Counted from the stretch's first letter, positions 20,126 through 54,875 are shown. The stretch: DNA of 64,000 nt from Candidatus Beckwithbacteria bacterium GW2011_GWC1_49_16 (GCA_001029675.1 CP011210.1:256193-320192), one strand, 5' to 3'. Notes: a model not told the origin generated them from the sequence alone. Program-made: numbers and translations.

Positions 20126-21777
20126 CGGTTTTTGCAGTATTTTAAGCACAGGGTGGGGTTGGGGGCGGTGCGACAAAGGTCTTGGCAATTTAGTGTGGTT
20201 GGTGGAGGAGTTGGGCTGGGACTGGGTGAGGGCGAGGGATACGGGTCAGGCGGGGGTGGGTTGTCAGCCTCAGGAAGATAGTCGGGGAAGGCGGTGGCCT
20301 CTTTCAGATTTAAGATATATTTCCACCAGTTGTTGAGCCGGGATGCGGTTGAGCCGGAGACCCTGGGTAAATGGCTAAACCAGTATTTATGAAAGTCGTA
20401 GCCGCTGCAGTTCCAGGCTTGGCAGTTTAAGTTTTGTTTGGCTTCGGTTAAGTCGGGATAGTTGACCCAGTCCTGACAGGTGCTTGGAACATAGGTTTGG
20501 TTGCTCCAGTCGTAGTCGGTAACCGAGTTGGGAGCGTAATGAATTGAACCGCAACCGCTGTAGTCGTAGTTCGGAGATTGAGCTTTTACTAAGGCGAATT
20601 TGTCCCAGTCATGGGCGGTGCGGTTTTGTGCCCAGCCGCCAAATGCTTGGGTTAGGGCCGACTCGGCCCTGTGGCCAAAACTTTCCAATGCCTCGTTGAT
20701 TTGTCTTTGGTAATTAAGGCCCATGATGGGCAGTTGACGTTGGCAGCCGGTGCCAGCCAGGGGGGGTGAGTTGTACCAAAAGGTGTCGGGTCCGGCCAGG
20801 CGAGATTCGTAAAAGCCAAACCAGGGTCCACCCCAAATCCAAAGCTCGTCTATTTGATTATCATTGACTCGATCGCAGATGTTGAATTGATCAAGGATTT
20901 TTAGATAATCTGCGGTGGCCGCGTCACAGTTGCCTTGAGCCATACAATCAAGGTAACTCTCGTCGGTAAAGTCAAAGCCGGATTCTTTTACTGGGAAGTC
21001 ATCGATGTCTTGCCAGTTGACGATTTGGTAGTTGACGTAGTAGTCGCTGACGGTTTTAAAATCTTGAACCAGCTGGTTGGTTAATTGTTGAGGGTCCTGC
21101 CAGTTATAGTAGTCATAGAGTTTGACTTTATCCTGACTTTCTAAAATTGGTCGGTAGTTGAGAACAACAACCTTGGTAGCTGTGGCTTGGTTGGGGCCCT
21201 GGATAGTGATGATTAGTTTGGCCGCCTTTTCTTCCTCCCGTTCGTAAGCATAGACCCGGCGGATGGTGGCAGATTGAGAGTCAAGAATGATGGTGAGGTT
21301 ATTGCCGGCTTGCCAGTCGGCTTGGTCGACGATTTCTTGAATCACCGGGGCAAGATCGGGAGTAGTTTTGGTGGTGTTAAAGTCCCAGTTGTCGGTGATG
21401 GTCCAGGCAGAGGTGTTGGTGGTGGGAGTTAAGTCTTTGGGTTGACGGCTGGTGCTTAAGGGGGTGGAGTCGGCGGTAGCTTCGGCGGCGATGGTAACGT
21501 TTAGGGGGTCGGTATAAGGGCCGTCGACGGTAAACTGCAAATGAGCCGAGACTACTTGGGAGCCTTGAATTATGGGGAGATTTTCGAAGCGGAAAGCGGC
21601 GGTGTATTGAGTATCGGGGCAGTTAGGGTCAGCTCCGAGGTAAATTTCGTTTCTGGTTTGGGAGTAGTCGCAGCCGGAGGTGGCGTCGTTGGCGCCAGAG
21701 TTTATCTGAAGCCGGTGGTCGGCGTTGATCACTTGGGAGGACCCCGTTTGGTAAATGGTGGGTTCGTTCCGAAACAA
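20122..21777 (-). CDS. secreted hypothetical protein (paralog A) with a PT-rich linker and a C-terminal Cys4 tail; the true start is probably upstream
   Basis: C-terminus ...SPSPSPSPTPPPTTLNCQDLCRTAPNPTLCLKYCKNR. Extending the frame upstream encodes a signal-peptide-like KFYFSSLIFIFFVAPLAGISLG before LFRNEPTIYQ, but it contains no ATG. Confidence 0.5.
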   Translation of the reverse strand: MFRNEPTIYQTGSSQVINADHRLQINSGANDATSGCDYSQTRNEIYLGADPNCPDTQYTAAFRFENLPIIQGSQVVSAHLQFTVDGPYTDPLNVTIAAEATADSTPLSTSRQPKDLTPTTNTSAWTITDNWDFNTTKTTPDLAPVIQEIVDQADWQAGNNLTIILDSQSATIRRVYAYEREEEKAAKLIITIQGPNQATATKVVVLNYRPILESQDKVKLYDYYNWQDPQQLTNQLVQDFKTVSDYYVNYQIVNWQDIDDFPVKESGFDFTDESYLDCMAQGNCDAATADYLKILDQFNICDRVNDNQIDELWIWGGPWFGFYESRLAGPDTFWYNSPPLAGTGCQRQLPIMGLNYQRQINEALESFGHRAESALTQAFGGWAQNRTAHDWDKFALVKAQSPNYDYSGCGSIHYAPNSVTDYDWSNQTYVPSTCQDWVNYPDLTEAKQNLNCQAWNCSGYDFHKYWFSHLPRVSGSTASRLNNWWKYILNLKEATAFPDYLPEADNPPPPDPYPSPSPSPSPTPPPTTLNCQDLCRTAPNPTLCLKYCKNR

Positions 21778-27212: not shown

Positions 27213-28628
27213 TTGATGGCAAAAAAGCGAGGACGCTTAGTTGTGCGGTATGGGCCGATGTGGTCGGATAAAACCAGTTGGTTAATAAAGCAGTTTGGTA
27301 AAGTGGCTGACACATTGGCTTTTAAGCCCGATATTGATACCAGGTATACTAGAAAGCCGGTTTTAAGGACTCACGATGGAAAGAGCGTGCCGGCAGTAAT
27401 GGTGCCAATTGATCAACCAGAAAAGATTTTCGAGGCAGTAAAAAGAAAACGGGGGGTAATAAAACGAGTGCTGATTGATGAAACTAACTTTTTTTCTGGT
27501 GGTTTGGTGAAAGTAGTTAGAAATTTGATTGGAATGGGGATTGATGTTTATACTGCTGGGTTAATCTTGGATACCGACCTGCAAGACTTTGGTCCAACCA
27601 GGAAGTTAACTAGGATGGCCGATGAGGTGGTAGAAAGTTTTGCTAGGTGTGATTTTATGTTTTTAACTGGTAGGTGTGGGAGGAGAGCCAGGTTTAACTA
27701 TTTTAAAGCAAAAAAGGATACGCAAATTGTGGTGGGGGCCGATGAGTTGTACGGCGTAGCCTGTGAAGATCATTATCAGGCCCTTCACTTTAAGACTGGT
27801 AGTCAAAAACAGTGGTGGTCAAGAATTAAGAAGCTGGTTGGGGCTAATCACCAAAAGAGCGACTGGAGTTGGTTTAGGCGATTAAAGTTACCGTCTAAGA
27901 AAAGGAGGCCGTTAAAGTTTTCCTTTGACCGGTGGCCAAGAATCGAAGTAGTAGCAGACAGTATGCGGGTGGGTAAAACTACGGCGGCTAGGGCTTTGGG
28001 TATAGAGCTTAAAAAACTGGGTCTGCCAGTAAGAGTCAGTTTAGAGGATTGGTCGAATAATCCCTATTTGGAAAAGAGTTACCTTGATTCGTCGGAATGG
28101 ATACTTTTGTCACAAGAGTGGTTTGCTAAGAAAAAATTTGAGCAAATTAAACGTGGAGAGAAAGAAGCAATATTTATTCAGGATGTTAGTCCGGAGATGG
28201 ATTTTGCTTATGCTTTGACCAATGTGCTCATGGGTAGGATGTCAAAGGAGCATTTTAAGGATTACTTTAAGTTCTATTCTAGCCACAAATGGGAAAATCT
28301 GCCGGCTCCAGACGTATTGGTTTATTTGACGATTAGCGATGAAGCCTTAGTGAAAAGGGCGTTGGAGAGTGTTAGGGATCTGGAGAAGATTGATCCATCA
28401 TATTTTTTGTTGATGCGAGCGGTTAATCGAACCTGGCTGGCTGATTCAGACCATATGACGGTGGTTAATATTGATACTGACGACCTTGATTTTTCTAAAG
28501 AAGGCCCGGCTAGAAAAGCCTTAGCCGGGCAGGTTTTAAAAAAACTACACGATTTAGGCTGGAAGTGGGATAATAGTTTTACTGCTGAGATGAAAAGGCA
28601 GGATTGGTTTGCTATGGTAGCAATATGA
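27213..28628 (+). CDS. tdk: fusion protein: thymidine kinase (N-terminal, about 195 aa) plus deoxynucleoside kinase (C-terminal)
   Basis: TK: GPMWSDKTSWLI P-loop, LIDETNFF, CxxC zinc motif. dNK: VVADSMRVGKTTAARAL P-loop and ISDEALVKRALESVRDLEKIDPSYF lid region. Confidence 0.7.
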   Translation: MMAKKRGRLVVRYGPMWSDKTSWLIKQFGKVADTLAFKPDIDTRYTRKPVLRTHDGKSVPAVMVPIDQPEKIFEAVKRKRGVIKRVLIDETNFFSGGLVKVVRNLIGMGIDVYTAGLILDTDLQDFGPTRKLTRMADEVVESFARCDFMFLTGRCGRRARFNYFKAKKDTQIVVGADELYGVACEDHYQALHFKTGSQKQWWSRIKKLVGANHQKSDWSWFRRLKLPSKKRRPLKFSFDRWPRIEVVADSMRVGKTTAARALGIELKKLGLPVRVSLEDWSNNPYLEKSYLDSSEWILLSQEWFAKKKFEQIKRGEKEAIFIQDVSPEMDFAYALTNVLMGRMSKEHFKDYFKFYSSHKWENLPAPDVLVYLTISDEALVKRALESVRDLEKIDPSYFLLMRAVNRTWLADSDHMTVVNIDTDDLDFSKEGPARKALAGQVLKKLHDLGWKWDNSFTAEMKRQDWFAMVAI

Positions 28629-30461: not shown

Positions 30462-32078
30462 ATGAAGAAGGACTACTACACCAAAGTTTCAAGCTACGAA
30501 GCCAGAATGGGTGAAGTGAAGCGGGTGGTGCTTTTGTATTCTGGGGGTTTGGACACCAGCGTGTTGATGAAGTGGATTCAAGATAAATATAGGGCAGAAG
30601 TGATTGCCCTAACCATAGATTTGGGACAGCAAGGCGACGATTTAGACAAGATCAGAAATAAGGCTTTGAAGCTGGGGGCGAAAAAAGCTTATGTGATTGA
30701 TGCCAAAGACGAGTTTGCTGATGAATATTTGTCGCACATGATTAAGGCCAATGGTTCATATCAGGGGGACTACCATATATCGACAGTGAGTAGGTATTTG
30801 ATGGCCAAACTGGCGATTGTGGTAGCTACCAAAGAGAAGGCTGACGCAGTGGCTCACGGTTGTACCGGAAAAGGTAATGATCAGGTGAGGATTGATTCGA
30901 GCATTTTAACTTTAAACTCCAACGTTAAAATTATTGCGCCAATTAGAGAGTGGGACATGACACGGGAAGCGGAGATCGAATACGCTCAAAAACACCAGAT
31001 TCCTGTGCCGGTAAAGAAAGATTTTCCTTACAGCGTGGATGATAATATGTGGGGAATGACTTGGGAGGGTGGGGAGATTGAAGACCCGGGTAAAATTCCT
31101 CAAATCGACCGGTTTTTGACTGCGTGTAGAACCTTGGACAAGACACCGGATAAACCGCAGATGATTACTTTGGAGTTTAAAAAAGGCGTCCCTTATAAAC
31201 TCAATGGTAAGAGTTATAAGTTAGCAGAGATGATTATGAGGCTTAACAAAATAGCCGGCAGACACGGAGTCGGGGTGGTTCATCATGTGGAAGACAGGCT
31301 AGTGGGCCTAAAAACGAGAGGGGTGTATGAGCATCCCGGTGGTCATACTATTATCCAGGCTCATAAAAATCTAGAGAAGTATGTTTGCACCAGAAGAGAA
31401 AACGAGTTTAAGGAGATTATGGATGTGAGATTTGGCTATCTTTGCTACGGGGCTTTGTGGTTTGACCCAATTATGGATGATATTAGAACTTTGAACGACA
31501 AAATTAACGAAAAGGTAAACGGTAAGGTAACGCTTAGGCTCCATAAAGGCCACGCGACTGTGGTGGCGATGAGGTCGCCTCATGCGCTTCACCACGTGTC
31601 GTTTGAGGACAAGGCGACACCATTTAATGTGATGACCAGTGCGCCTTTTATTGAGGTTTACTCGATGCAGATGAGGTTGTCGCAACAGCGGGGTGAGAAA
31701 AGAGTTTTGTTGTCGATTGGGAGGCAGGGAAATAAAGAAAAATTGTTACCGACTGCCAGGAAGCTTTCTAAGTTGGGTTACGTGATTTTTGCCACTGAAA
31801 AAACTCACAGGTTCTTAACTGAAAATGCGGTGTCCAATTACTTGGTGTATAAAATCAGCGAGAAGAAAGCCCCCAATTTGGGGGTGATGCTTAACGAAAA
31901 GGGGTTTGATCTGATTGTAAACATTCCCACGTCAAGCGTTGACAAGAAAGAAATGACCGACGGCAAGCTGATTCGGCAAAAGGCGGTGGATGATAAAGTG
32001 ACTCTGTTGACGACCGTGGACACAGCCAAGCGCCAGATTGAAAAGCTATATGAAGCTAAATTTGGTAAGCTGGAGTGA
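30462..32078 (+). CDS. argG: argininosuccinate synthase fused to a C-terminal MGS-like domain (CarB allosteric-domain type)
   Basis: VVLLYSGGLDTSV PP-loop and HGCTGKGNDQVRID. C-terminal 130 aa (RVLLSIGRQGNKEKLLPTARKLSKLGYVIFATEKTHRFL...DLIVNIPTS) matches an MGS-like fold. Confidence 0.75.
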   Translation: MKKDYYTKVSSYEARMGEVKRVVLLYSGGLDTSVLMKWIQDKYRAEVIALTIDLGQQGDDLDKIRNKALKLGAKKAYVIDAKDEFADEYLSHMIKANGSYQGDYHISTVSRYLMAKLAIVVATKEKADAVAHGCTGKGNDQVRIDSSILTLNSNVKIIAPIREWDMTREAEIEYAQKHQIPVPVKKDFPYSVDDNMWGMTWEGGEIEDPGKIPQIDRFLTACRTLDKTPDKPQMITLEFKKGVPYKLNGKSYKLAEMIMRLNKIAGRHGVGVVHHVEDRLVGLKTRGVYEHPGGHTIIQAHKNLEKYVCTRRENEFKEIMDVRFGYLCYGALWFDPIMDDIRTLNDKINEKVNGKVTLRLHKGHATVVAMRSPHALHHVSFEDKATPFNVMTSAPFIEVYSMQMRLSQQRGEKRVLLSIGRQGNKEKLLPTARKLSKLGYVIFATEKTHRFLTENAVSNYLVYKISEKKAPNLGVMLNEKGFDLIVNIPTSSVDKKEMTDGKLIRQKAVDDKVTLLTTVDTAKRQIEKLYEAKFGKLE

Positions 32079-43700: not shown

Positions 43701-44438
43701 ATGACCAAAAAAACGACCAAAAAAACAGACTACAAAATCGACCTGAAGGAGTTACTCGATGCCGGGTGCCATTTTGGCCACCAGGCCAGGCGGTGGAACC
43801 CGAAGATGAAGCAGTACATTTATGTCAAGCGCGACGGGGTGCACATTTTTGATCTTGAAAAAACGGCTGCCCACCTCTCGGCGGCGATGGAAAAGGTGCG
43901 GGATTTGGTAGCCGAGGGCAAAGAGGTGGTGTTTGTCGGCACCAAAAGACAAGCCTCTTCGATCGTGGAAGAGGAAGCCAAAAAAGTGGGGGCGCCTTAT
44001 GTGGCCATCCGCTGGCTGGGAGGAACGGTGACTAATTGGGAGCAGATTAAAAAGGGAATCGACAAGTTGAATGAGTATGAAGAAAAAAAAGCCAAAGGCG
44101 AGTTTAAAAAATATACCAAAAAAGAAAATTTATTGATCGCCAGGGAGATGGAAAAGCTAGACCGGTTTTTAGGGGGGTTGAAGACTTTAACCCAGATTCC
44201 GGAGGCGATTTTTGTGGTGGATATCAAAAAAGAGGTGGCAGCGGTAAAGGAAGCCAAGATCCGCGGCCTGGAGTTGATCGCCATGGTCGACTCAAACGCT
44301 GACCCCGACGTGGTGACCGATGTGATTCCGGCCAACGACGACGCGGTCCGGTCGATCAAATTAGTGGTAGCCAAAATGGCCCAAGCTTACAGTGACGGCA
44401 AGGGCTTAAAAGGCAAAAAGCCCAAGGCAAAATCATGA
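43701..44438 (+). CDS. rpsB: 30S ribosomal protein S2
   Basis: LLDAGCHFGHQARRWNPKM. Confidence 0.9.
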   Translation: MTKKTTKKTDYKIDLKELLDAGCHFGHQARRWNPKMKQYIYVKRDGVHIFDLEKTAAHLSAAMEKVRDLVAEGKEVVFVGTKRQASSIVEEEAKKVGAPYVAIRWLGGTVTNWEQIKKGIDKLNEYEEKKAKGEFKKYTKKENLLIAREMEKLDRFLGGLKTLTQIPEAIFVVDIKKEVAAVKEAKIRGLELIAMVDSNADPDVVTDVIPANDDAVRSIKLVVAKMAQAYSDGKGLKGKKPKAKS

Positions 44439-44890
44439 GTAAAATTTCTTTAAAAGACATCAAAAAACTAAGAGACGAGACCGGGGCGGGGTTGATGGAG
44501 GTGAGAGTAGCCCTTGAGGAGGCGGGAGGCAAGGCTAAAAAGGCTAAAGAGATTTTGAAAAAGCTGGGGGTCAAAAAAGCAGCCAAACGCGGCGACAAAG
44601 CCACCGATGAGGGTTTTATTTTCACCTACGTCCACCAGGGCAGGATCGGAGCCATGGTCAAGCTGCTTTGTGAGACTGACTTTGTGGCCAGATCGAGTCA
44701 GTTTCAAAAATTGGGAGCTGAACTGGCGCTGCAAATTGCCAGCATGGAGCCAAAAAACGTTGAGGCGCTTTTAAAGCAGGAGTATATCAGGGACAACAAA
44801 ACCAAGATTGCCGATTTAGTGGCCGCGGCCGCGGCCAAACTCAAAGAGAACATTAAGGTGGACGATATCGCGAGATTAGCTTTAAAGTAA
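44435..44890 (+). CDS. tsf: elongation factor Ts (short, 151 aa)
   Basis: KKLRDETGAGLMEVRVAL UBA-like N-terminus. Confidence 0.8.
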   Translation: MSKISLKDIKKLRDETGAGLMEVRVALEEAGGKAKKAKEILKKLGVKKAAKRGDKATDEGFIFTYVHQGRIGAMVKLLCETDFVARSSQFQKLGAELALQIASMEPKNVEALLKQEYIRDNKTKIADLVAAAAAKLKENIKVDDIARLALK

Positions 44891-44931: not shown

Positions 44932-45174
44932 ATGACGATTCTTTCTACCGTAACCACCAAGGGCCAGGTGACTATTCCCCAAGAGTTTAGACAAATGCTG
45001 AACATTAAACCAGGCCAAAAAGTACAATTTTCCAAAGGCGGGTCAGGAGCAATTAAGCTTAAACCTGTACCTGATTTTGCGGATATGATGGGTTACTTTA
45101 AAACTAAAATTAAATACAATAAAAAGGCTGCTAGAGCAGCTTACGTTAAGGATTTAATTGCTGGTAAAATCTAA
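44932..45174 (+). CDS. AbrB/MazE/SpoVT-family antitoxin
   Basis: TTKGQVTIPQEFRQMLNIKPGQKV swapped-hairpin motif. Confidence 0.6.
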   Translation: MTILSTVTTKGQVTIPQEFRQMLNIKPGQKVQFSKGGSGAIKLKPVPDFADMMGYFKTKIKYNKKAARAAYVKDLIAGKI

Positions 45175-45557
45175 TGGTTATTGATACGGATATTATTATT
45201 CGATTTATAACCCAAGACGATAACCAAAAGGCGAAAAAATTTCAAGTTTGGCTGAAAAAAAACAAAAAAATTCTCCTGTCTGATGTTACGGTTGCCGAAA
45301 CCTATTGGGTGCTTAAGTCTTTTTACGGTTTTTCTCAAAAAAGAATAATTATCAGTCTTGAATCACTGGTGAGCTATAACAATATCGTATGTAATAAAGT
45401 TTTGCTGTTATCAACGATGGCGCAATTAAAAAGATATAAGATTAGTTTTGTTGATGCTTACGCGTCAGCATATAGTTTGCTGGAAAATGATGGGAAAATA
45501 CTTTCTTTTGACAAGGATTTTGACAAAATTAAAGGCATTAAAAGAATTGAACCTTAG
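45174..45557 (+). CDS. PIN-domain toxin (VapC-like)
   Basis: MVIDTDIIIRF...SFDKDFDKI acidic residues; ATG overlaps the upstream stop. Confidence 0.7.
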   Translation: MVIDTDIIIRFITQDDNQKAKKFQVWLKKNKKILLSDVTVAETYWVLKSFYGFSQKRIIISLESLVSYNNIVCNKVLLLSTMAQLKRYKISFVDAYASAYSLLENDGKILSFDKDFDKIKGIKRIEP

Positions 45558-46155: not shown

Positions 46156-47235
46156 ATGCAAATCATTATATTCCTGATTATCTTGTCCGTCTTGGTTTTG
46201 ATCCATGAGCTGGGGCATTTTGTGGCAGCGAGAATTTTTGGCATTAAAGTGGAGGAATTTGGTTTGGGCTATCCGCCCAAGGTTTGGGGTAAAAAGGTCG
46301 GCGAGACTATCTATAGTATCAACTTTCTTCCCTTTGGTGGTTTTGTCCGGCTTCTGGGAGAAAACCCCACTTCGCTCGAAGAGTTACGCGGGGCAGGCGT
46401 TGATAGAAAGAGAACGTTTTTCAGCCAGAAAAAAAGAGTCAGGACGGCGGTTTTGACGGCCGGGGTGGCGATGAACTTTTTACTGGGAGTGATTCTGTTT
46501 AGCGCCATTTATACCAAAATCGGCATTCCCGAGGAAACCGATTATCTGACGGTGACCGGGGTGGCGGCCGGGTCGCCGGCAGAGGCGGCCGGAGTCAAAG
46601 CAGACGATAGGATTGTCGGGGTAACCGGCCTTAGCTTTGAAGACGGAGAAGTGGACCAGGCGTTTATCGACCATGTTAACGCTCACCGGGGAGAAGAAAT
46701 TATTTTACAGCTTAAGGATGGCCGGCAGGTGAGGCTAGTTCCTAGAACCGAAGAAGCCACTCCGGCAAACCAAGGGGCTTTGGGAGTGGTGATCACCAAC
46801 GTTGATTTGATCCAGTATCCGATGTGGCAAAGACCATTCAGGGGCGCGGTCGTGGGTTTGAAAGAAGCGCTTTCGTGGGGCAGGGAGATTTTGGCCTCTT
46901 TGGGGCTGATGGTGGCCCGACTGGCTCAAGGGGTGGTACCCAAGGATGTCGCCGGGCCGGTGGGGATTTACGAGATCAGTAAAAGCGTGTCCCAGGAAGG
47001 CATTTTGGCGGTGCTACAGTTTATGGCGGTGTTGTCGGTCAACCTGGCTATTCTCAATTTACTCCCCCTGCCGGCGCTTGACGGAGGCAGGCTGGCTTTT
47101 GTGGTGGTGGAGGCGGTCACCGGCAAACGGGTCAAGCCGGAAGTAGAGCAGTGGGTTCATCTTGTCGGTATGGTCTTACTCTTGGGCCTGATGGCCCTGG
47201 TGACCATTGCCGATATCAGGCGGCTGGCGGGGTAG
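46156..47235 (+). CDS. rseP: RIP metalloprotease RseP (M50 with PDZ)
   Basis: HELGHFVAA HExxH; PDZ segment; NLLPLPALDGGRL. Confidence 0.85.
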   Translation: MQIIIFLIILSVLVLIHELGHFVAARIFGIKVEEFGLGYPPKVWGKKVGETIYSINFLPFGGFVRLLGENPTSLEELRGAGVDRKRTFFSQKKRVRTAVLTAGVAMNFLLGVILFSAIYTKIGIPEETDYLTVTGVAAGSPAEAAGVKADDRIVGVTGLSFEDGEVDQAFIDHVNAHRGEEIILQLKDGRQVRLVPRTEEATPANQGALGVVITNVDLIQYPMWQRPFRGAVVGLKEALSWGREILASLGLMVARLAQGVVPKDVAGPVGIYEISKSVSQEGILAVLQFMAVLSVNLAILNLLPLPALDGGRLAFVVVEAVTGKRVKPEVEQWVHLVGMVLLLGLMALVTIADIRRLAG

Positions 47236-47268
47236 GTTTGACATTTTTACATACATTGTATATACTTT
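47236..47268 (+). promoter_or_regulatory. promoter (TTGACA ... TATATA) with palindromic tacatacattgtatata upstream of relB
   Basis: gtttgacatttttacatacattgtatatactttgtgtat. Confidence 0.35.
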
Positions 47269-47577
47269 GTGTATATGAGTGACACAGCGGTAATCAACAT
47301 CAGAACCGATGCTCGGATAAAGGCTCAAGCCCAAAGAGTGGCCAAGGAAGCCGGTTTGACTTTGAGCGGCTTGATTAACTTTTTAATTAGAACAGTAGTA
47401 AAGACAAAAAAGTTGGAGTTTGACTTAAACGAGACGCCTAGCCCTTATTTGATTGAGTCACTTAAAGAGTCCGAAGAGGATATTAAAGCTGGTAGGGTTT
47501 CTCCGGCTTTTGACAATGTCAAGGACGCCATTGCCTGGTTAGAGGATAAAGACAGAAAGTATGTCAATCAGATTTAG
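47269..47577 (+). CDS. RelB/DinJ-family antitoxin
   Basis: VINIRTDARIKAQAQRVAKEAGLTLSGLINFLI, a DinJ-like RHH. Confidence 0.65.
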   Translation: MYMSDTAVINIRTDARIKAQAQRVAKEAGLTLSGLINFLIRTVVKTKKLEFDLNETPSPYLIESLKESEEDIKAGRVSPAFDNVKDAIAWLEDKDRKYVNQI

Positions 47578-47824
47578 CCGGAAGTTTAAAAAACAACATG
47601 GCAAGGCACCGCTAAAAATCAGAAAAGCATTCTACCAAAGGTTGACACTTTTTGAAAAAGACAAATTTTCTCCGCTTTTAAACAATCACGCTTTAAGCGG
47701 ACAGTGGCGAGGTTATAGGAGTATCAACATATCAGGAGATTGGCGGGCGGTGTTTATTGAGAGTACCAGAAGCAATTTGGTTATTTTTGTGGCTTTGGGC
47801 ACTCACAGCCAGTTATACGGCTGA
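47561..47824 (+). CDS. RelE/YafQ-family toxin
   Basis: LSGQWRGYRSINISGDWRAVFIE...ALGTHSQLY, a YafQ-like signature; overlaps relB. Confidence 0.65.
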   Translation: MSIRFSRKFKKQHGKAPLKIRKAFYQRLTLFEKDKFSPLLNNHALSGQWRGYRSINISGDWRAVFIESTRSNLVIFVALGTHSQLYG

Positions 47825-47897
47825 TTAATTTATAACTCATTTAGTCTTCATTGATTAGGTATTGACAAAGTAGTTAGTTTGTGCTTAACTTAAGTCA

Positions 47898-48083
47898 ATG
47901 AAAAAGCTGCAGTTATCGCTCACCCGCCAGGAAGCCCAGTTACTCGAACTCAAAGGCGCCGAACTTGGCTACGACCTGACCAAGTACGTTAAGTTCATTT
48001 TGGCGCGCGAGGCGGCCAGCGTGATGGAAGCCGCTCACCCCAGCCAGCCCCAAAAATTTGATCAGGATGATAAAATAGAGTGA
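47898..48083 (+). CDS. small RHH-like DNA-binding protein, 4 nt upstream of the large membrane protein gene
   Basis: LSLTRQEAQLLELKGAELGYDLTKYVKFIL; own promoter-like TTGACA...TTAACT upstream. Confidence 0.4.
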   Translation: MKKLQLSLTRQEAQLLELKGAELGYDLTKYVKFILAREAASVMEAAHPSQPQKFDQDDKIE

Positions 48084-48086
48084 TAT

Positions 48087-50486
48087 ATGACTATAGCTAC
48101 AGGTGAATTAGCTTTACCTTTGCCGCGCGCCAAACAAGGCGTGCCAGAAGTTAGGTCGATAGACTCTTCGGAATTACCGCCGTTGACAGTGGGGGAGATG
48201 TTGACTGATTTGACCCACGACGCCCAAGACTTATATCAGGCAGTAATGGGGGAAGCAGTGAGCAGATATAGTAGGGAGCCGGCCCTGCTTTTGGCTGATT
48301 TAAAAGAGGTGGGTCGGTTTGGCTTGGAGTTTATTAAGCAGCTACCCCAGGACGCCAGAGTTTTTGGTGAGATGATTGCCGGTTTGAAAGAAGCGGATTT
48401 TTCGTGGCGGAACCCAGACGGCGGCTGGAACAGGACAGGAATTTGGAACACGATAAAACTAGCTTTCACCGGTGTGGTAATTGGAGGTTTAGTGTCCGCC
48501 TGTGCTCAAGATCCTGAACGAGTCACTCCAACCCAAGACGGTGATGACGACTGGCTGGGGAGCGAGTGTGCTGGTTTGATAGGAGCGATTCACGGGTTAA
48601 ATCCCGACCAGGTAGATTTTGCTTTTGTTGACGCTAACTCTTTAGACTCCGGTGAGCTGGGCGCGCTTCAGGCTGACTTCCAGGCGGATATTCCCGGCGC
48701 CTTAGTCAGGGGTTTGGTTGGCGGTGCGGGAGATTTTCCGGTTTTGGGGCTGGCAGAGCCTGATAGTACCGGCCGGCTGCAGTCTGTTTGGGCAGTGCCG
48801 GTTTGCGAAGCGGGCGACTCTGTCGGCCTTGGGTTTATTTGGCCGGATTTAAGCCAGGTTGGCCCGGATATGATTACCAGAAGCAATGGTAGTCTGACGA
48901 TTCCTTTGCACCAGCTTGTTTTTAATCCGGAATCAGAGGATTTTGAGCCGGTCGAAGCAGCAACGCCTATGGTGGTAAGGGTTAATGAGGCTGGAGAGTT
49001 TACTTATGAGCTGGAAGGTCCGGATGGCGGAAAGGTGGTTCTGGTCGAAGAAAATTTGACCGATGCATTGGCTGCTGCTTTTTTGGTCGACCAGGTGCAC
49101 GACATTGTTGACGCAGAAAACGAGCTGGCAGGGACGCCGGCGTTTGTGGGTTTTAACCCGGAAATCGTGGCCTTAACCGGTTTGCCGGTAGAGGTTAACG
49201 GTCAAGAATATTGGGCTAACTCGTTTGAGTTGCAAGACGCCCTAAACGACCAAGGTTTGTCGCCGGCGGTGGTTACCGTCAACAACGGCGACGGCAGCAG
49301 TTTTAATGCTTTGAGCATTACTAAAAACGGCGAAGCCTTCGTCAGCTACGCCGATCAACTATATGACCCTTATGACGTCAATGGGCCGGAAGACAAGTTT
49401 ATCGGCATTAATGACGCTGGCATGGCCGAGTATGGTGATGAACTGGACCAGGCAATAATCACCTTGCCTAGCGAAGGCTTGGGTGACAACGTGGGCATAG
49501 CGGCCATGATCGTTACCGATCCGGATAAACTACCGGATCACTTAGGCGAGTTTAAGACAGGGACGGTAATAATTGCCACTGTAGACAAGAATACTAACGA
49601 GGTAATCTCGGCGGTCAGGGCCATTTGGGAGAAGGACGACAAGATCGATATCACCACCGCCGAAGGCAAGATAATTTTGACAGTTGACGAAGGCGACGGC
49701 CAAGTTAGCCGCCACGAGCTGACCACAGTGCTTGAATCTTCGGTGTCGCTACCGACGACTTTGCCCGAGGAGTTGCAAGTGCTAGTCGAGGAAAAAGGGT
49801 TAACTTATGACGATGAGACCAACACTTACGTTAATAGCTATGACGAGAAGAGGCTTTACCAAAACGAGGCCGGCGACTGGGTAGATTTTTACCAAGAGTT
49901 GATTGACAACGCGCCCACCAAGAATTTTTGGGAGAATCGAGAGACTGGAGATGGTGGTATTATCAATCGAGATGCTTGGCCGGTGTTTACCGGAGAAACA
50001 AGAACCATGGAAATGGAGCTCATTTCTGGTACTCAAGTAACTTTGGATGTTTTAGTGGCATTAATTGCAGACCCGACCAACCCAGAAATTATACGAACTG
50101 CCCTCATTCTTGAAAAAATGACCGACTCGAACGGCACAGAGCTTGCTAGCATCTCTCCCGCAGCCTCAGGTGGATACAGACCGATTTTTGAGCCAGGGAC
50201 AGAAAAAGTGCGCCTTAATAGTCTTGATGGTGATGGTGGTTTTTTAAGTGATTTTTCTGGCATGATAGCCGGTGACCAGTTAGGCATCAGTTATTGGTTC
50301 CATTTCCCTTCAATTCTTCCCAGTTGGGGCGTTAAACCAAACAGGGTCGGTTGGTTTTATGACTTAGATCAGACGACTGGCTCGACTAGGGTGCTTGAGG
50401 CGATGTTTTCTGGCCAAGCCTACGACTGGCCCGAAGACGGTTTGATTATCTCCGCGCACACCAACTGGGTATATGTCTTAAGATAG
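48087..50486 (+). CDS. large acidic membrane-anchored protein (about 110-aa cytoplasmic N-terminus, single TM, about 660-aa extracytoplasmic domain)
   Basis: One hydrophobic segment IWNTIKLAFTGVVIGGLVSACA near aa 115-135; the remainder is D/E/G-rich; no motif recognised. Confidence 0.45.
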   Translation: MTIATGELALPLPRAKQGVPEVRSIDSSELPPLTVGEMLTDLTHDAQDLYQAVMGEAVSRYSREPALLLADLKEVGRFGLEFIKQLPQDARVFGEMIAGLKEADFSWRNPDGGWNRTGIWNTIKLAFTGVVIGGLVSACAQDPERVTPTQDGDDDWLGSECAGLIGAIHGLNPDQVDFAFVDANSLDSGELGALQADFQADIPGALVRGLVGGAGDFPVLGLAEPDSTGRLQSVWAVPVCEAGDSVGLGFIWPDLSQVGPDMITRSNGSLTIPLHQLVFNPESEDFEPVEAATPMVVRVNEAGEFTYELEGPDGGKVVLVEENLTDALAAAFLVDQVHDIVDAENELAGTPAFVGFNPEIVALTGLPVEVNGQEYWANSFELQDALNDQGLSPAVVTVNNGDGSSFNALSITKNGEAFVSYADQLYDPYDVNGPEDKFIGINDAGMAEYGDELDQAIITLPSEGLGDNVGIAAMIVTDPDKLPDHLGEFKTGTVIIATVDKNTNEVISAVRAIWEKDDKIDITTAEGKIILTVDEGDGQVSRHELTTVLESSVSLPTTLPEELQVLVEEKGLTYDDETNTYVNSYDEKRLYQNEAGDWVDFYQELIDNAPTKNFWENRETGDGGIINRDAWPVFTGETRTMEMELISGTQVTLDVLVALIADPTNPEIIRTALILEKMTDSNGTELASISPAASGGYRPIFEPGTEKVRLNSLDGDGGFLSDFSGMIAGDQLGISYWFHFPSILPSWGVKPNRVGWFYDLDQTTGSTRVLEAMFSGQAYDWPEDGLIISAHTNWVYVLR

Positions 50487-50536
50487 GCTGTCAAACCGGT
50501 TGACTTTTAACCAGAGCTTCATGCTACCATTAGGTT

Positions 50537-51115
50537 ATGGATAACAGGAAGTTGATTTTGGTTAGCTACATTGTCCTGATTAGTCTGTTTCTTGGTTTTC
50601 TGGGTTACTACTGGTTTGTTAAATACTATGTTTTTCCCAAGCGATCAGATTTAACTCCTTTCCCGGTACTGTCTTCCAAATATGCGACCGTAGGGGTAAG
50701 CGACGAATGGCGCTTTGAGTATATTCAGCCTTTCTTAAAAAACTTTTTCTCTCAAGACGGAGTTAATTATCTTGAAGTTTTCTATTATGACACCGATAAC
50801 AAGAGGCATAATATTAAGCTATTTATTTCCGGTGGGTTTAAGAGTGAAGCTGTAGATGGTATAGGCTACGGTGACGGAACCGATTCGGGCTTGATTGATT
50901 TTGCTGAACTTAAAACTAAAATCAAGCCCGGCCAGCAGGTGGGGATAGAGTATTTAGCCAAGCCCTTTCCCAAATTTTTTAGAACGGAGCAGGTTTGTGC
51001 TAAGTTGGGACATTTATGCCTTTTGGCGGACATTATGGAAGAAAAGTCGCAGGAGGCAGAAGGGGCTACTTTTTTGGTGGCCACGGCTATTTACACCGAC
51101 TTATATGAAGAGTAA
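50537..51115 (+). CDS. small N-terminally anchored membrane protein
   Basis: N-terminal TM LILVSYIVLISLFLGFLGYYWFV; 192 aa. Confidence 0.4.
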   Translation: MDNRKLILVSYIVLISLFLGFLGYYWFVKYYVFPKRSDLTPFPVLSSKYATVGVSDEWRFEYIQPFLKNFFSQDGVNYLEVFYYDTDNKRHNIKLFISGGFKSEAVDGIGYGDGTDSGLIDFAELKTKIKPGQQVGIEYLAKPFPKFFRTEQVCAKLGHLCLLADIMEEKSQEAEGATFLVATAIYTDLYEE

Positions 51116-52856
51116 GTTGTTTTTGGTCGTCTTAGGGGCCATCTTTGGTTTGAGTTTACTGGTGGCAAAAGACAGGGTTTTGGCTGACGAACTTTGCCCC
51201 GGAGGCACTTGTTTGGGGGAGTCGGTATTGGACGTGTATGACTATTGTAAGGCACACCAGTCAGAAAACTGGTGTGTGCAATACTATGCCAGAGATACAG
51301 TTACTTGCGGTGCCTTAACTTGTAGGTATTCCAAGTTTAGCCTAGGCCCAAACGTTAAGTGTATTTCGGAGGATATCAGTATTAACCCTGAGTGTGATGG
51401 GACGACTTTTGAGATGCAGGCAGGTAGTTGTTGTAGTAATGATCCTGGTGGGGGTAGTGGTGGTAGTTGCCCGGCGGCGGCGGGGGTGCCGGGGAGCTTG
51501 ACCATTAGCCCCTCAAACGGCTCGACGACAGAGCCGGACGGGGACGGCAACATTACCGTGTCGTGGAGCTCTGACTCCAATGGCAAGGCTGACGTGTGGA
51601 ATTATGAGATTTACCCTGCCGGCACCAGTTGTTCTAACCCTTTGGCCTATTGCAGTCAGTTGGTGGGCCGGGACAACCGGTCTAAAACCTTTACTTCTGC
51701 CGCCGACACTTACTTTGCCCGGGTTCAGGGAGTCAACGTTTCCTGCAGTATTCAGCCCGGGCCGTGGTCATCAACCACCTTTTTTGTCGGCGAGCCTTTA
51801 GGAGATATATCCGGCACGGTCTATTTACTGGGTGACGGGAGTACCGCTAGCCAGGTGGGATTTTGCCAGCTTGATCCTGGTAGTAGCGCTAGTCCATTAA
51901 ATTTAGGTACCAATGTAACGGTTAGCAACCCGGGAAACTACACCGGAACGGTGGGCGGGGGCGGCAACTACACGGTGGCAGATGTTCCTGCCGGGGGAGC
52001 GTACACGGTGACTTTGGATCCTTCTACCTACACTTGCGCCTGTCCCTCGGGGACCTGCCAGTATGGGGGAGTCAGTTCTCCCCAAGCAGGAGTGGATTTT
52101 TATCTGACAGATTTAGCCGATGCCTGGTGGCAGGCAGAAGGGGGTAATCTTCATGCCGACGGCGGCAGTGTCTCGTCTAACATTCCGGCAAGCTGCGCCG
52201 GGCTGTGTTCGCCTTATCTTGTTACCGAGGATGCGTCCGGCACTACCGGTCTGGTGAGTTACACCGGGTCTTTGGTTACCGGCAGCGGCGACATTAGTCA
52301 GGACGGCAACGACTGGAATGCCAAGACCCAATACAAGGGGCTGGAAACCAAATATGCCTATTTTGCCCGGATTTTGGAGGACGACCCGGAAGAGGCAAGT
52401 GTTTGGGACGGGAGCGAGCCGGGAGCCTCCGGGGTCTATGCCGCCAGCGGGTCGACGGCTACCTTTGGTGGTGATTGGAGTATCGGCTCGGGTACGGCGG
52501 CGGTGATCCTGGTTGACGGCGACGTCACCATAGCCCAAAACATCAACGTTGACGAGGGCGGCTTTTTGGCCATCATTGCTTCGGGGAATATTTCGGTTAA
52601 CTCGGCGGTCACTAACGTCGAGGGGGTGTATATTGCGGACGGAGTAATTGCCACTGGGACAACGGGGACAGGTGACGAGCAGCTTATCGCCGAAGGCATT
52701 TTCACCGGTTGGGGCGGGTTTAATTTGGAGCGGGATCTTGACAGCGGCAACAACAACGAGGCGGCCGAGTACTTTATCTACCGGCCGGATTTACAGGTCA
52801 ACGCTTACCAGTACCTGACCCGTTCCAAGTACCGCTGGGAAGAAGTGGCGCCGTAG
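51105..52856 (+). CDS. secreted Cys-rich, Gly/Ser/Thr-rich surface protein
   Basis: Signal peptide MKSKLFLVVLGAIFGLSLLVA; 12+ Cys in the first 120 aa; GGGSGGS linker; beta-rich repeats. ATG overlaps the upstream ORF end by 11 nt. Confidence 0.45.
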   Translation: MKSKLFLVVLGAIFGLSLLVAKDRVLADELCPGGTCLGESVLDVYDYCKAHQSENWCVQYYARDTVTCGALTCRYSKFSLGPNVKCISEDISINPECDGTTFEMQAGSCCSNDPGGGSGGSCPAAAGVPGSLTISPSNGSTTEPDGDGNITVSWSSDSNGKADVWNYEIYPAGTSCSNPLAYCSQLVGRDNRSKTFTSAADTYFARVQGVNVSCSIQPGPWSSTTFFVGEPLGDISGTVYLLGDGSTASQVGFCQLDPGSSASPLNLGTNVTVSNPGNYTGTVGGGGNYTVADVPAGGAYTVTLDPSTYTCACPSGTCQYGGVSSPQAGVDFYLTDLADAWWQAEGGNLHADGGSVSSNIPASCAGLCSPYLVTEDASGTTGLVSYTGSLVTGSGDISQDGNDWNAKTQYKGLETKYAYFARILEDDPEEASVWDGSEPGASGVYAASGSTATFGGDWSIGSGTAAVILVDGDVTIAQNINVDEGGFLAIIASGNISVNSAVTNVEGVYIADGVIATGTTGTGDEQLIAEGIFTGWGGFNLERDLDSGNNNEAAEYFIYRPDLQVNAYQYLTRSKYRWEEVAP

Positions 52857-52903
52857 GATTACTTCTTGACAAATCTTTACATTTAGTATATTCTTTACTT
52901 ATT

Positions 52904-53161
52904 ATGAATGTAAATTATTCTATTACTTTACCGGTAAGCGCTAAGGGGCAGGTGACTATCCCTGTTAGCATTAGACGCCTACTTAAGCTTGATAAAACTC
53001 AAAGGGTAACAGCGGAAGTAATTTCTAAAGATAAAGTGATCTTAAAACCGATTAAATTTACCCTTGAAGATGTTTACGGCTCAGTTAAGCCGATTGCCAG
53101 GAATTTTAAAGAAATGAGGCAAATTGTCCGACAGGAGAGAGCGTTGCGGACAAGCGGCTAA
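52904..53161 (+). CDS. AbrB/MazE-family antitoxin (paralog of 44932)
   Basis: SAKGQVTIPVSIRRLLKLDKTQRV. Confidence 0.6.
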   Translation: MNVNYSITLPVSAKGQVTIPVSIRRLLKLDKTQRVTAEVISKDKVILKPIKFTLEDVYGSVKPIARNFKEMRQIVRQERALRTSG

Positions 53162-53574
53162 TGAAACCCACTTTTGTTGACACCAACATTTTTATTCGCT
53201 TTATTACTAAAGATGACTCTAAAAAAGCGGCTAAGTGCTGGTTATTGTTTAAAAAGGCCAGAGAGAAAAAAGTCATTTTAACTACCTCCGAGGCTATTCT
53301 GGCAGAAACGGTTTATATTTTGACATCTAAGGCGCTGTATGGGCTTTCGAGAGAAGAGGTTAGGGATAAACTCCAGCCTTTAATCGGGCTTAAAGGGCTA
53401 AAGCTTAACTTTAGAGTTGAAATATTAATGGCTTTGGATATTTTTGTAGAATACAAAATTGATTTTGAAGACGCTTTAACCGTGGCGCGAATGAAGAGCG
53501 AGCAGATAAAAAACATTTATTCTTATGATCAAGATTTTGACAAGGTGGATTGGATCGGCAGACAAGAACCGTAA
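53161..53574 (+). CDS. PIN-domain toxin (paralog of 45174)
   Basis: FVDTNIFIRFITKDD...YSYDQDFDKV. Confidence 0.7.
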   Translation: MKPTFVDTNIFIRFITKDDSKKAAKCWLLFKKAREKKVILTTSEAILAETVYILTSKALYGLSREEVRDKLQPLIGLKGLKLNFRVEILMALDIFVEYKIDFEDALTVARMKSEQIKNIYSYDQDFDKVDWIGRQEP

Positions 53575-53645
53575 GTTCACCTGGCGGGAAGTGACGTCGG
53601 AGCTTGGGGCTGGGATTTTAGGGGGAATTTTGATAGAGTAAACTC

Positions 53646-54875
53646 ATGCGTTATAGTCAGCTTTTTCCCAAGACTAAAAAGGAAGCGCCTAAGGGCGCCG
53701 AGAGCGTCAACCATAAGCTGTTGGTGCGGGGCGGTTTTATCGACCAACTGATGGCGGGGAGCTGGACGTTACTTCCTTTAGGCTGGCGGGTGGTCAATAA
53801 TATTAACCAGATTATAAGAGAAGAAATGAACGCCGTCGGCGGCCAGGAAATGCTGATGCCGTTGCTTCACCCTAAAGAGATTTGGAACGAGACCGGGCGG
53901 TGGGACAAAGCCGACGAGATAATGTACAAATTAAAAGACGCCCGGGACCGGGAATATGTGCTTTCCTTTACCCATGAAGAGATTGTCATGGATTTGTTGC
54001 GCAAAAACATAGTGAGCTTTAAAGATTTGCCGGTGGCAGTGTATCATTTTTCGACCAAGTTCAGAAACGAACCGAGAGCCAGGTCAGGGATTTTGCGCGG
54101 CCGCGAGTTTATGATGAAAGATCTTTATTCGGCGCATACCTCGGAGAAAGATTTGATGGAGTATTACGAGAAGGTTAAGGGGGCTTATGTGAAAGTGTTT
54201 GAGCGCTTGGGGTTTGACTATCGGGTGACCGAGGCCGGCGGCGGCGTGTTTACCGACAAAAATACCCACGAGTTCCAGGTGCTATCAGCGGGCGGCGAGG
54301 ACACGATTTTTTATTGCGACAGCTGCGACTGGGGAGCCAACCAGGAAATTTTTAAGGGCAGCCAGGGGGATAAATGCTCCGAGTGTGGTAAGGGTCAGGT
54401 AGTTAAGACAAAAGCGATCGAGGTGGGTAACGTTTTTCCTTTGGGGACCTGGTACGCGGAGAAGATGGGGATGTATTTTACCGACAGCCAGGGCCAGAAA
54501 AAGCCGGTTTGGTTTGGCAGTTACGGCATCGGCCCGACCAGGGTGATGGGGGCGTTGGTAGAAGTCAATCACGACGAGCGGGGCATTATCTGGCCGGAAG
54601 TAGTGGCGCCGTTTGCGGTGCATTTAGTGTCGCTTCCCGGGGCAGAAAAGCAAACCAAAGAAGCCTATGGCCAGCTTAAGGAGGTAGGAGTGGAGGTGTT
54701 GTGGGATGATCGGGAGGTGTCCGCCGGAGTTAAGTTTGCCGACGCCGATTTAATCGGCATTCCGGTAAGATTGGTGGCGTCGGCCAAGTCGAAAGATAAG
54801 TTAGAGTGGAAGGCAAGAAGTAGCGATAAAACCGAATTGGTGAGTTTAGATGAAGCGGTCAAGCGGTTAAAATGA
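53646..54875 (+). CDS. proS: prolyl-tRNA synthetase, short form lacking the INS editing domain, with an inserted Cys4 zinc ribbon
   Basis: Class II motifs; CDSCDWGANQEIFKGSQGDKCSECG insertion; 409 aa. Confidence 0.8.
   Translation: MRYSQLFPKTKKEAPKGAESVNHKLLVRGGFIDQLMAGSWTLLPLGWRVVNNINQIIREEMNAVGGQEMLMPLLHPKEIWNETGRWDKADEIMYKLKDARDREYVLSFTHEEIVMDLLRKNIVSFKDLPVAVYHFSTKFRNEPRARSGILRGREFMMKDLYSAHTSEKDLMEYYEKVKGAYVKVFERLGFDYRVTEAGGGVFTDKNTHEFQVLSAGGEDTIFYCDSCDWGANQEIFKGSQGDKCSECGKGQVVKTKAIEVGNVFPLGTWYAEKMGMYFTDSQGQKKPVWFGSYGIGPTRVMGALVEVNHDERGIIWPEVVAPFAVHLVSLPGAEKQTKEAYGQLKEVGVEVLWDDREVSAGVKFADADLIGIPVRLVASAKSKDKLEWKARSSDKTELVSLDEAVKRLK

Follow-up and report, generated by a model that had tools for sequence, protein, structure and literature searches.

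A conserved cell-envelope module between rseP and proS in a Beckwithbacteria genome, with a possible link to type IV pili

We have analysed a 64-kb stretch of DNA (64,000 nucleotides, hereafter the window) from Candidatus Beckwithbacteria bacterium GW2011_GWC1_49_16, which belongs to the Microgenomates within the candidate phyla radiation (CPR, or Patescibacteria). At its centre lie four consecutive open reading frames (ORFs), all on the plus strand, which encode a ribbon-helix-helix (RHH)-like protein (RHH61), a large acidic protein (BIG), a small anchored protein (SM) and a Cys-rich protein (CYS) (Table 1). These ORFs had been described in an earlier account made without database searches (the sequence-only reading), and the gene models of the public annotation are identical to ours. 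Two details of that account required correction: the distance from the RHH61 stop to the BIG start is 3 nt rather than 4, and CYS is 583 rather than 584 amino acids long. The 11-nt overlap between SM and CYS was given correctly. With at least 49 homologues of CYS and 13 of BIG, the ORFs are beyond chance. None of the four proteins had a significant family match in Pfam or NCBIfam, and matches to Shiga-toxin B, MinC and CarboxypepD_reg (E 0.01-0.4) were judged to be noise or generic folds. The earlier statement that the large proteins belong to no recognised family was thus borne out in Pfam, NCBIfam and PDB-sequence profile searches, as was the extracytoplasmic location proposed for BIG, SM and CYS. 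The remainder of the window is housekeeping in character and includes rpoD, mreB, pbp2, topA and genes of nucleotide and pyrimidine metabolism. The best explanation of the locus is that the promoter, RHH61, BIG, SM and CYS form one operon, a conserved CPR-specific cell-envelope module, and that the adjoining toxin-antitoxin (TA) pairs are unrelated hitch-hikers.

Table 1. Features of the module and of its surroundings (positions in the window; residue numbers in parentheses)
Feature	Position	Strand	Basis or remark
Promoter and candidate operator	47845-47902	+	nine-locus alignment
8-nt inverted repeat TTCATTGA/TCAATGAA	47847-47854 and 47895-47902		within promoter region
CATTGA element	47849-47854	+	within promoter region
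-35 TTGACA, perfect	47863-47868	+	within promoter region
-10 TTAACT, degenerate	47886-47891	+	within promoter region
RHH-like ORF (RHH61)	47898-48083	+	61 aa
BIG ORF	48087-50486	+	799 aa
BIG transmembrane helix (118-140), ending LVSAC, Cys139	48438-48506	+	hydropathy
BIG C-terminal domain (556-799)	49752-50483	+	most widely shared part of BIG
SM ORF	50537-51115	+	192 aa
CYS ORF	51105-52856	+	583 aa, ATG at 51105
CYS variable Cys-rich head (28-124), ends GGGSGGS	51186-51476	+	identity, AlphaFold2
CYS putative stalk: Fn3-like (125-230) and Ig/CarboxypepD_reg-like (231-334)	51477-52106	+	AlphaFold2, Foldseek
CYS conserved C-terminal domain (335-583)	52107-52853	+	family-defining part
RelB-YafQ promoter	47238-47266	+	own strong promoter, scan 11/12 matches
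RelB-YafQ pair (not part of module)	47269-47824	+	Pfam RelB E 1e-10, YafQ 4e-11
MazE/AbrB-PIN promoter	52866-52894	+	promoter scan
MazE/AbrB-PIN pair (not part of module)	52904-53574	+	Pfam MazE/AbrB 2e-6, PIN 1e-13
Second MazE/AbrB-PIN pair	44932-45557		Pfam
RseP (M50 site-2 protease), synteny anchor	46156-47235	+	contig comparison
Prolyl-tRNA synthetase (ProRS), synteny anchor	53646-54875	+	contig comparison

The large proteins of the module differ widely in how fast they have diverged. In CYS, a Sec-type signal peptide, judged by eye (VLA/DE, the slash marking the cleavage site), is followed by a Cys-dense N-terminal region and the GGGSGGS linker, as described previously; 11 of the 20 Cys residues fall within residues 31-122. 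Conservation rises steeply along the chain: identity to homologues is 24% in the head (at 52% coverage), then 30% and 42% for the middle pair of domains, and it reaches 57% in the C-terminal domain. In an alignment of this last domain (alignment A4), 20 positions of the C-terminal ~250 amino acids are invariant. The polar ones among them are Q343, R422, E530, R543, D562 and E580, and H350, D427 and R560 are at least 90% conserved. The domain comprises a beta-helix-like core, VILVDGDV..GGFLAIIASGNI..VEGVYIADG, and a conserved W-x-E-V-A-P tail. A protein search yielded 49 family members and a contig scan 75 metagenome loci, and homologues were found only in CPR metagenomes. Within the module, this C-terminal domain of 250 amino acids is the only robust family marker. 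The AlphaFold2 model of CYS has a mean predicted local distance difference test (pLDDT) score of 56, with values of 80-89 for residues 125-230, 82-92 for 430-520 and below 50 in the head. It contains a confident Fn3-like domain (125-230) and a confident beta-helix-like stretch (430-545). When compared with the PDB by Foldseek, the model matched tandem fibronectin type III (FnIII) domains only (E ~3e-4). The CarboxypepD_reg match of the second middle domain is weak (E 0.1), and some homologues match Big_2 or fn3.

BIG is strongly acidic (pI 4.06, with 132 Asp and Glu against 45 Lys and Arg) and contains few Cys residues. Hydropathy analysis shows one helix only, of moderate hydrophobicity, at residues 118-140, behind an N-terminus of ~117 residues, in good agreement with the topology proposed earlier (~110 residues, one transmembrane helix and an acidic outer domain). 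This helix ends in LVSAC, which fits the lipobox pattern [LVI][ASTVI][GAS]C, and of the 20 proteins that occupy this position in other loci, about 14 have a lipobox-like Cys behind the helix (LLAGC, VITAC, IAAAC, VLTAC, LLGSC, MVAGC and FLAAC, among others). As in bacterial lipoproteins processed by Lgt and Lsp, a box of the [LVI][AST][GAS]C type ends the only hydrophobic helix of BIG and of most of its positional equivalents. Unlike in these lipoproteins, the helix of the window protein is preceded by ~117 residues and not by a short charged n-region of 5-10 residues, whereas several of the positional equivalents have short or twin-arginine (TAT)-type n-regions. Because the lipobox-like Cys recurs in ~14/20 equivalents, some of them behind ordinary short or TAT signals, BIG probably represents a lipoprotein family; the copy in the window is unusual in being extended by ~117 residues at its N-terminus. 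No Lgt or Lsp was seen among the scanned ORFs of the 64-kb window.

BIG evolves quickly. A word-indexed search returned only BIG itself, and an exhaustive HMMER search among 1.8 billion representatives recovered 13 distant homologues. In some homologues, nothing but the C-terminal domain follows a lipoprotein or TAT-type signal. The AlphaFold2 model (mean pLDDT 64) has confident beta-rich domains at residues 380-545 and 560-690, with values of ~87-91 for residues 570-690 and below 50 for the N-terminus. Foldseek comparison of the model with the PDB and BFVD gave no fold match; hits to OspA, prolyl oligopeptidase and tail fibres (TM-score <=0.1) were rejected as meaningless. Searches of PDB sequences with profiles A1, A3, A4 and A6 found nothing. 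The N-terminal anchor reported for SM was confirmed. SM is 28% identical to a 179-amino-acid protein of locus L010, where it follows CYS, and beyond this pair it could not be aligned to the small proteins of other loci.

To place the module in its genomic context, contigs carrying CYS homologues were retrieved and the window proteins were mapped onto them, giving 97 loci in total (L-numbers are our own). The order FolD-S2-Tsf-RRF-RseP-[BIG-(SM)-CYS]-ProRS-DHH-S21-YqeY-YbeY-DnaX recurs in ~20 contigs. The rseP-proS order was seen in L004/L001, L006, L008, L010, L014, L020, L028, L031 and L035-L040, among others, and L020, a 260-kb contig, has the same order and not a single TA gene. In base composition, BIG, CYS and RHH61 resemble the neighbouring housekeeping genes, with a G+C content (GC) of 0.505-0.55 and a GC at third codon positions (GC3) of 0.53-0.66; SM is lower than its neighbours (0.41), and the TA genes, at 0.32-0.42, lie 10-20 points below the core. 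The block is a fixed feature of the lineage and not an accessory island; only the TA pairs come and go. On this point our results depart from the sequence-only reading, which had seen an accessory cell-surface or host-interaction block bracketed by TA modules. The comparison of presence and absence across relatives found the block fixed between rseP and proS, and the GC and GC3 comparison found it core-like. The accessory reading fails because the block is conserved together with the core gene order in relatives, an outcome that this reading had itself named as speaking against it. Its other half stands, since a surface or host-interaction role is still the best reading of these genes. The sequence-only reading had not included the pilus link of distant homologues (below), the lipobox-like Cys of BIG or the rise in conservation along CYS.

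The three large proteins also appear together outside this setting. Upstream of CYS and on the same strand, an acidic protein of at least 350 amino acids (pI 4.1-5.2) is encoded in ~28 of 31 informative distinct loci, and an N-anchored protein of 130-260 amino acids lies between the large acidic protein and CYS in ~22 of these 31. The placement of the small gene varies: it follows CYS in L010, lies upstream on the other strand in L020 and is missing from L008. The trio was found outside the rseP-proS context in L009, L043, L081, L095 and L021/L022, among others. Because a large acidic protein, a small anchored protein and CYS recur together in unrelated contexts (L009, L043, L081 and L095), we regard the trio as a unit. 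L004 encodes a second BIG homologue (757 amino acids) and, after it, another Cys-dense protein with a signal peptide, which the contig end cuts short (L004:11738-15250). This pair lies just past the TA cluster of the first module and is a tandem copy without the small protein. Three module-bearing contigs, L009, L011 and L015, have been binned as Chloroflexota, 'uncultured proteobacterium' and Pseudomonadales, respectively, and L011 contains many frameshifted ORFs. This odd binning is probably due to mis-binning or chimeric assembly, with horizontal transfer as an alternative.

The promoter region at the head of the operon is conserved as well. A promoter-like sequence 5' of the RHH61 gene had been noted previously; it has a perfect -35 and a poor -10, and owing to the latter it was missed by our consensus promoter scan. 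Comparison of nine loci established it as a conserved promoter region. The 60 nt upstream are conserved in 9/9 loci, with CATTG and TTGACAA invariant, and the -10 is TATTAT or TATATT in relatives, having degenerated in the window. The window has a single copy of the combination CATTGA-N7-TTGACAA, as does each of seven other loci, in every case 5' of the RHH gene. In relatives, a direct repeat, TGA(G/C)AAGTCATTGA, is present twice at a distance of 22 nt; its second copy overlaps the -35 and is degenerate in the window. Since the RHH61 ATG lies ~7 nt past the -10, the mRNA leader would be very short or absent.

Homologues of RHH61 were found in eight loci, with 18 invariant residues within the first 35, and these conserved proteins sit 5' of highly divergent BIG proteins. 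Copies of 57-60 amino acids, without a toxin, lie between RseP and BIG in L030, L031, L035, L039, L058 and L059. In L029, the homologue comes after a HicA toxin gene (region L029:1-483), directly 5' of BIG and with no following toxin. Seven loci therefore have the small gene and the same promoter and repeat region directly 5' of BIG in the absence of a following toxin, in line with the dedicated small regulator proposed in the sequence-only reading. A longer homologue in L010 (89 amino acids) overlaps a YafQ/RelE-like toxin gene (region L010:3859-4381). From this toxin-paired relative, we had considered that RHH61 might be a decayed orphan antitoxin, an idea that was dropped in view of the seven copies that lack a toxin, are well conserved and have a conserved promoter. 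RHH61 itself has no significant Pfam match and a PDB profile search gave nothing meaningful; its homologues show weak matches only, to DUF6364 (0.007), DUF6290 (0.04) and ParD (0.17). RHH61 resembles autorepressors of the CopG/Arc/antitoxin type in its length of ~60 residues, its KLQ(I/L)(T/S)LT beta-strand-like N-terminus with two predicted helices, its first place in the operon, the repeats overlapping its own -35 and the toxin-paired state of its longer L010 relative. It is unlike them in that no RHH or antitoxin family matches it significantly and that most copies are toxin-less and head a surface-protein operon. The conserved promoter, the repeats and the toxin-less gene support a dedicated regulator, a candidate autoregulator whose RHH membership is not set by any significant match. 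We predict that the protein binds the repeats overlapping its own -35 and thereby autoregulates the operon. The family looks like an antitoxin DNA-binding domain that has been domesticated as an operon regulator.

TA pairs do lie on both sides of the module, as reported: RelB-YafQ upstream and MazE/AbrB-PIN downstream, with a further MazE/AbrB-PIN pair at 44.9 kb. In each of the three pairs both domains score above the Pfam threshold and the genes are small and adjacent or overlapping, as in type II TA systems. They do not define an island, being variable, richer in AT and absent from 11 related loci. RelB-YafQ has a GC of 0.41-0.42 compared with ~0.50 for the core, and most relatives lack it at this place; the downstream MazE/AbrB-PIN pair has a GC of 0.37-0.40. 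The gap between CYS and ProRS is 23-88 nt in the 11 loci without TA genes and otherwise 567-3200 nt, the long gaps being filled with RelB/YafQ, MazE-AbrB/PIN, MNT/HEPN, AbiEi/AbiEii or combinations of these. Of 68 distinct loci, 29 have the start of a TA gene no more than 700 nt past the CYS stop, usually within 9-82 nt, where about one would be expected from the density elsewhere in the loci (10 gene starts for the same TA queries in the remaining 488 kb), a contrast to be read with the caveat that the TA queries were taken from these very positions. At least five TA families occur at this hot spot at the 3' end of CYS (window 52857-53645). TA-flanked CYS loci include L001, L004, L008, L011, L018, L026, L029, L033, L034, L042, L043, L045, L053, L055, L063, L066, L070, L075, L081, L091 and L096, among others, and of these L018, L043, L045, L063, L066 and L081 are non-syntenic contexts. 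TA genes are also present at the upstream edge of the module in at least eight loci. In L008, rseP and the BIG gene are separated by a transposase gene of the IS200-like (Y1_Tnp) type (L008:3207-3893, minus strand), which indicates that the upstream edge accepts mobile elements as well. The TA hot spot could arise from a permissive end of the operon, from hitch-hiking where recombination is concentrated around a hypervariable locus, or from defence-island logic.

A hint to function comes from the more distant CYS homologues. In five separate contexts, these are placed inside a type IV pilus (T4P) cluster or next to one (lengths of the module proteins in square brackets). In L017, the order is PilC-pilin-PilD-minor pilins-[428-212-550]-PilM-PilN-like-PilO; in L018, [1182-184-518] is followed by TA genes, five pilin genes, PilD, a pilin, PilC, PilT and PilB. 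The trio of L021, [937-210-499], is convergent with minor pilins, and that of L080, [661-256-613], is centrally placed within a complete T4P cluster. In L016 (Woesebacteria), [163-801] precedes PilM, PilN and PilO on one strand. Among the 97 loci, pilin-type signal motifs occur only in L017, L018, L021 and L080; L016 has PilM and PilO but no pilin motif. T4P-adjacent contexts thus number 5 among ~22 non-syntenic ones, with the module no more than one to a few genes away from the pilus genes, where by a rough estimate, not a computed one, chance would account for a few percent for a pilus-unrelated gene in a ~1-Mb genome. A second hint is DUF7305 (PF23981), the only family that recurs among matches of the CYS C-terminal domain. 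Ten of the 49 CYS family members match it at E <=0.01, all below threshold (best score 25.2 bits, E 1.7e-5, against a gathering threshold of 27), and the matches cover the beta-helix-like core (profile positions ~40-110 of 185); the window CYS itself does not match it. DUF7305 is a domain that we take to occur in PilX-like or large pilin-like proteins, and we use this unconfirmed pilus connection as a lead only. Unlike DUF7305 proteins, CYS has no prepilin N-terminus. The Thermus tip pilin ComZ carries a beta-solenoid.

The arrangement of CYS recalls that of PilY1, whose signal peptide is of type I and which has a variable N-terminus and a conserved C-terminal domain that binds minor pilins (PMC7541494). 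Like PilY1 of Pseudomonas, Neisseria and Myxococcus, CYS combines an ordinary signal peptide and a variable N-terminus with a conserved C-terminus, is encoded near minor pilin genes in L017, L018, L021 and L080 (not in the window or the rseP-proS loci) and can occur in paralogous sets within one genome (two CYS-type genes in each of L004 and L015; L010 and L012 in one metagenome-assembled genome). In contrast to PilY1, CYS has no beta-propeller, its conserved domain being beta-helix-like in the AlphaFold2 model, and it is accompanied by BIG and SM, whereas PilY1 systems contain no equivalent of either. CPR cells are also not known to have an outer membrane or a secretin. T4P have been described as central to CPR-host association in Saccharibacteria (PMC9894109, PMC11623550), and CPR-enriched families without known function have been linked to pili and cell contact (10.1101/335083). 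Large Cys-rich extracellular proteins of Peregrinibacteria have been proposed to mediate attachment (PMC4736985). CYS shares with these proteins and pilus families a signal peptide, a high density of Cys, strain variability, the lack of an assigned function and a proposed attachment role; it differs in that the reports describe a general class and not a three-gene module.

Based upon these observations, we tentatively suggest that the locus is a conserved T4P-associated envelope module in which CYS is a PilY1-like adhesin, analogous and not homologous to PilY1, and we would give this reading a probability of about 0.45. Export of CYS would go through Sec, and disulfides would stabilise the protein. 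At its C-terminal end, the beta-helix-like domain and the W-x-E-V-A-P tail would dock to the pilus machinery (a minor-pilin tip or priming complex), to BIG and SM, or to both, while the Fn3 and Ig domains would form a stalk and the hypervariable Cys-rich head a ligand- or host-binding surface. BIG, acidic, membrane-held and probably lipid-modified at Cys139, and the bitopic SM may hold or assemble CYS at the membrane. A bolder version, in which CYS is a CPR-specific non-homologous counterpart of PilY1 at the pilus tip or base, its head sets host specificity, BIG and SM deliver it, a domesticated RHH repressor controls it, and the TA/Abi enrichment marks a recombination or defence hot spot, is in our view rather unlikely as a whole.

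Several observations count against a pilus role. There are no pilus genes near the module in the window or in any locus of the rseP-proS type, and the non-syntenic contexts other than those five adjoin unrelated genes (mreB/pbp2, NDK, glycosyltransferases, a papain-like protease). No prepilin motif (G/F-T-L-x-E, cleaved at the slash) was found in BIG, SM or CYS, the sole match in the window lying inside topA, and no PilY1/Neisseria_PilC domain was matched by Pfam in CYS or the 49 family members. The DUF7305 matches all fall below the Pfam threshold. Both AlphaFold2 models are modest (pLDDT 56 and 64), and Foldseek returned generic FnIII domains for CYS and nothing for BIG. Further, an iterated BIG profile that recognises the BIG-position proteins of 13 loci did not match those of L008, L020, L036 or the pilus-linked loci. 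At the T4P-linked loci, the identity of the module hence rests on CYS homology and on architecture.

With this in mind, the strongest competitor is a surface coat or adhesin complex that acts independently of pili, in which BIG would be an abundant, acidic, S-layer-like surface protein anchored by lipid or by a transmembrane helix, CYS would be a disulfide-rich partner displayed on it, and the adjacency to pilus genes would merely reflect the clustering of envelope genes. BIG is large, very acidic, poor in Cys and fast-evolving like surface-layer proteins; the module of the window lineage lies among highly expressed housekeeping genes, with no pilus genes nearby; most non-syntenic contexts are not T4P; and the Cys-rich extracellular CPR proteins mentioned above have been proposed as general adhesins (PMC4736985). 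We nevertheless consider this explanation doubtful, because chance would hardly produce embedded or in-operon positions in T4P clusters in as many as five independent contexts, because Pfam and NCBIfam revealed neither an SLH nor another S-layer anchoring domain in BIG (acidity and size are not diagnostic by themselves), and because of the sub-threshold DUF7305-like signal. It is less probable again that CYS is a secreted beta-helix enzyme, a lyase or hydrolase acting on glycans or cell walls of the host or of the cell's own envelope, with a catalytic C-terminal domain and with BIG and SM as membrane partners. The beta-helix is a common fold of polysaccharide-active enzymes, invariant polar residues surround the beta-helix-like core, and a papain-like protease adjoins two CYS family members in L015. 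The pilus-cluster contexts speak against it; a hypervariable Cys-rich N-terminus with an Fn3/Ig stalk is typical of adhesins, and no enzyme family was matched in Pfam, NCBIfam or PDB sequences.

Two further explanations appear very improbable. One is the horizontally acquired accessory island of the sequence-only reading, stabilised by its bracketing TA modules. The TA pairs on both sides in the window, the trio on the contig binned as Chloroflexota (L009) and the extreme divergence of BIG, SM and the CYS head could be taken in its favour, but the rseP-proS place is fixed across many relatives, including the TA-free L020 and L036, the composition is core-like and the TA families differ between loci. 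The other makes BIG a signalling protein cut by RseP, either an anti-sigma-like bitopic protein or a lipoprotein with an RseP-cut signal-peptide remnant, with CYS as its ligand or sensor partner. Eep, which cuts remnants of enterococcal pheromone lipoproteins, offers an analogy. BIG has the appropriate parts (a cytoplasmic N-domain, one transmembrane helix and a large outer domain), its gene is next to rseP, a lipobox-like Cys follows the unusually long N-terminal region, and a P-[ST]-[LFV]-x-[ED] motif, seen by eye, recurs in the N-terminal extension of homologues. However, rseP-proS is an old conserved order into which the module was inserted, modules occur elsewhere with no rseP nearby, and many BIG homologues have ordinary short lipoprotein or TAT signals. 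In addition, residues 1-117 of BIG contain no zinc anti-sigma motif (HxxxCxxC) and have a pLDDT below 50, and no sigma gene is adjacent, RpoD being encoded 44 kb away. The PilY1-like, T4P-associated module accordingly remains the reading we prefer.

The module is an unnamed variant within a known kind, the surface- and pilus-associated adhesins of CPR bacteria. The literature searched holds no description of the three-gene module, the CYS C-terminal domain, the fixed place between rseP and proS or the RHH-promoter head, and searches on DUF7305, Beckwithbacteria surface genes and CPR lipoprotein processing returned nothing specific. How the ultra-small CPR bacteria recognise and bind their hosts is largely obscure, T4P being the only machinery shown experimentally to matter, and this in Saccharibacteria. 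A PilY1-like module that recurs in pilus clusters would be a concrete candidate for a specificity determinant in Microgenomates, and the CYS C-terminal domain (alignment A4) provides a marker domain that can be searched for. The TA hot spot is a tractable case of selfish or defence modules gathering beside hypervariable surface loci in streamlined genomes.

A number of minor observations were made on the surroundings of the module. ProRS has 409 residues in the window and 407 in L020, both without an editing domain, compared with 556-557 residues and an inserted tRNA_edit domain in close relatives (L001:3935-5605, L010:9245-10918); the insertion is thus variable within the lineage. EF-Ts is only 151 residues long in this lineage (window 44435-44890 and the equivalent gene of L004, L010 and L020), far below the ~280 residues of the E. 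coli protein. Large ORFs without a Pfam family lie at 3861-5177 (plus strand, 438 residues), 8538-10067 (minus, 509) and 20122-21777 (minus, 551). Thymidine kinase and deoxynucleoside kinase are fused in one ORF of 471 residues (27213-28628), and an argininosuccinate synthase of 538 residues (30462-32078) carries a C-terminal MGS-like domain. Nearly all genes of the window are on the plus strand. GC skew is positive in every 1-kb bin from 1 to 64000, and the cumulative skew climbs monotonically from 0.23 to 15.3. This may be related to the strand compositional disparity described for a Microgenomates genome (PMC7143001). Lastly, the region at 8-10 kb of the window is low in GC (0.38-0.39).

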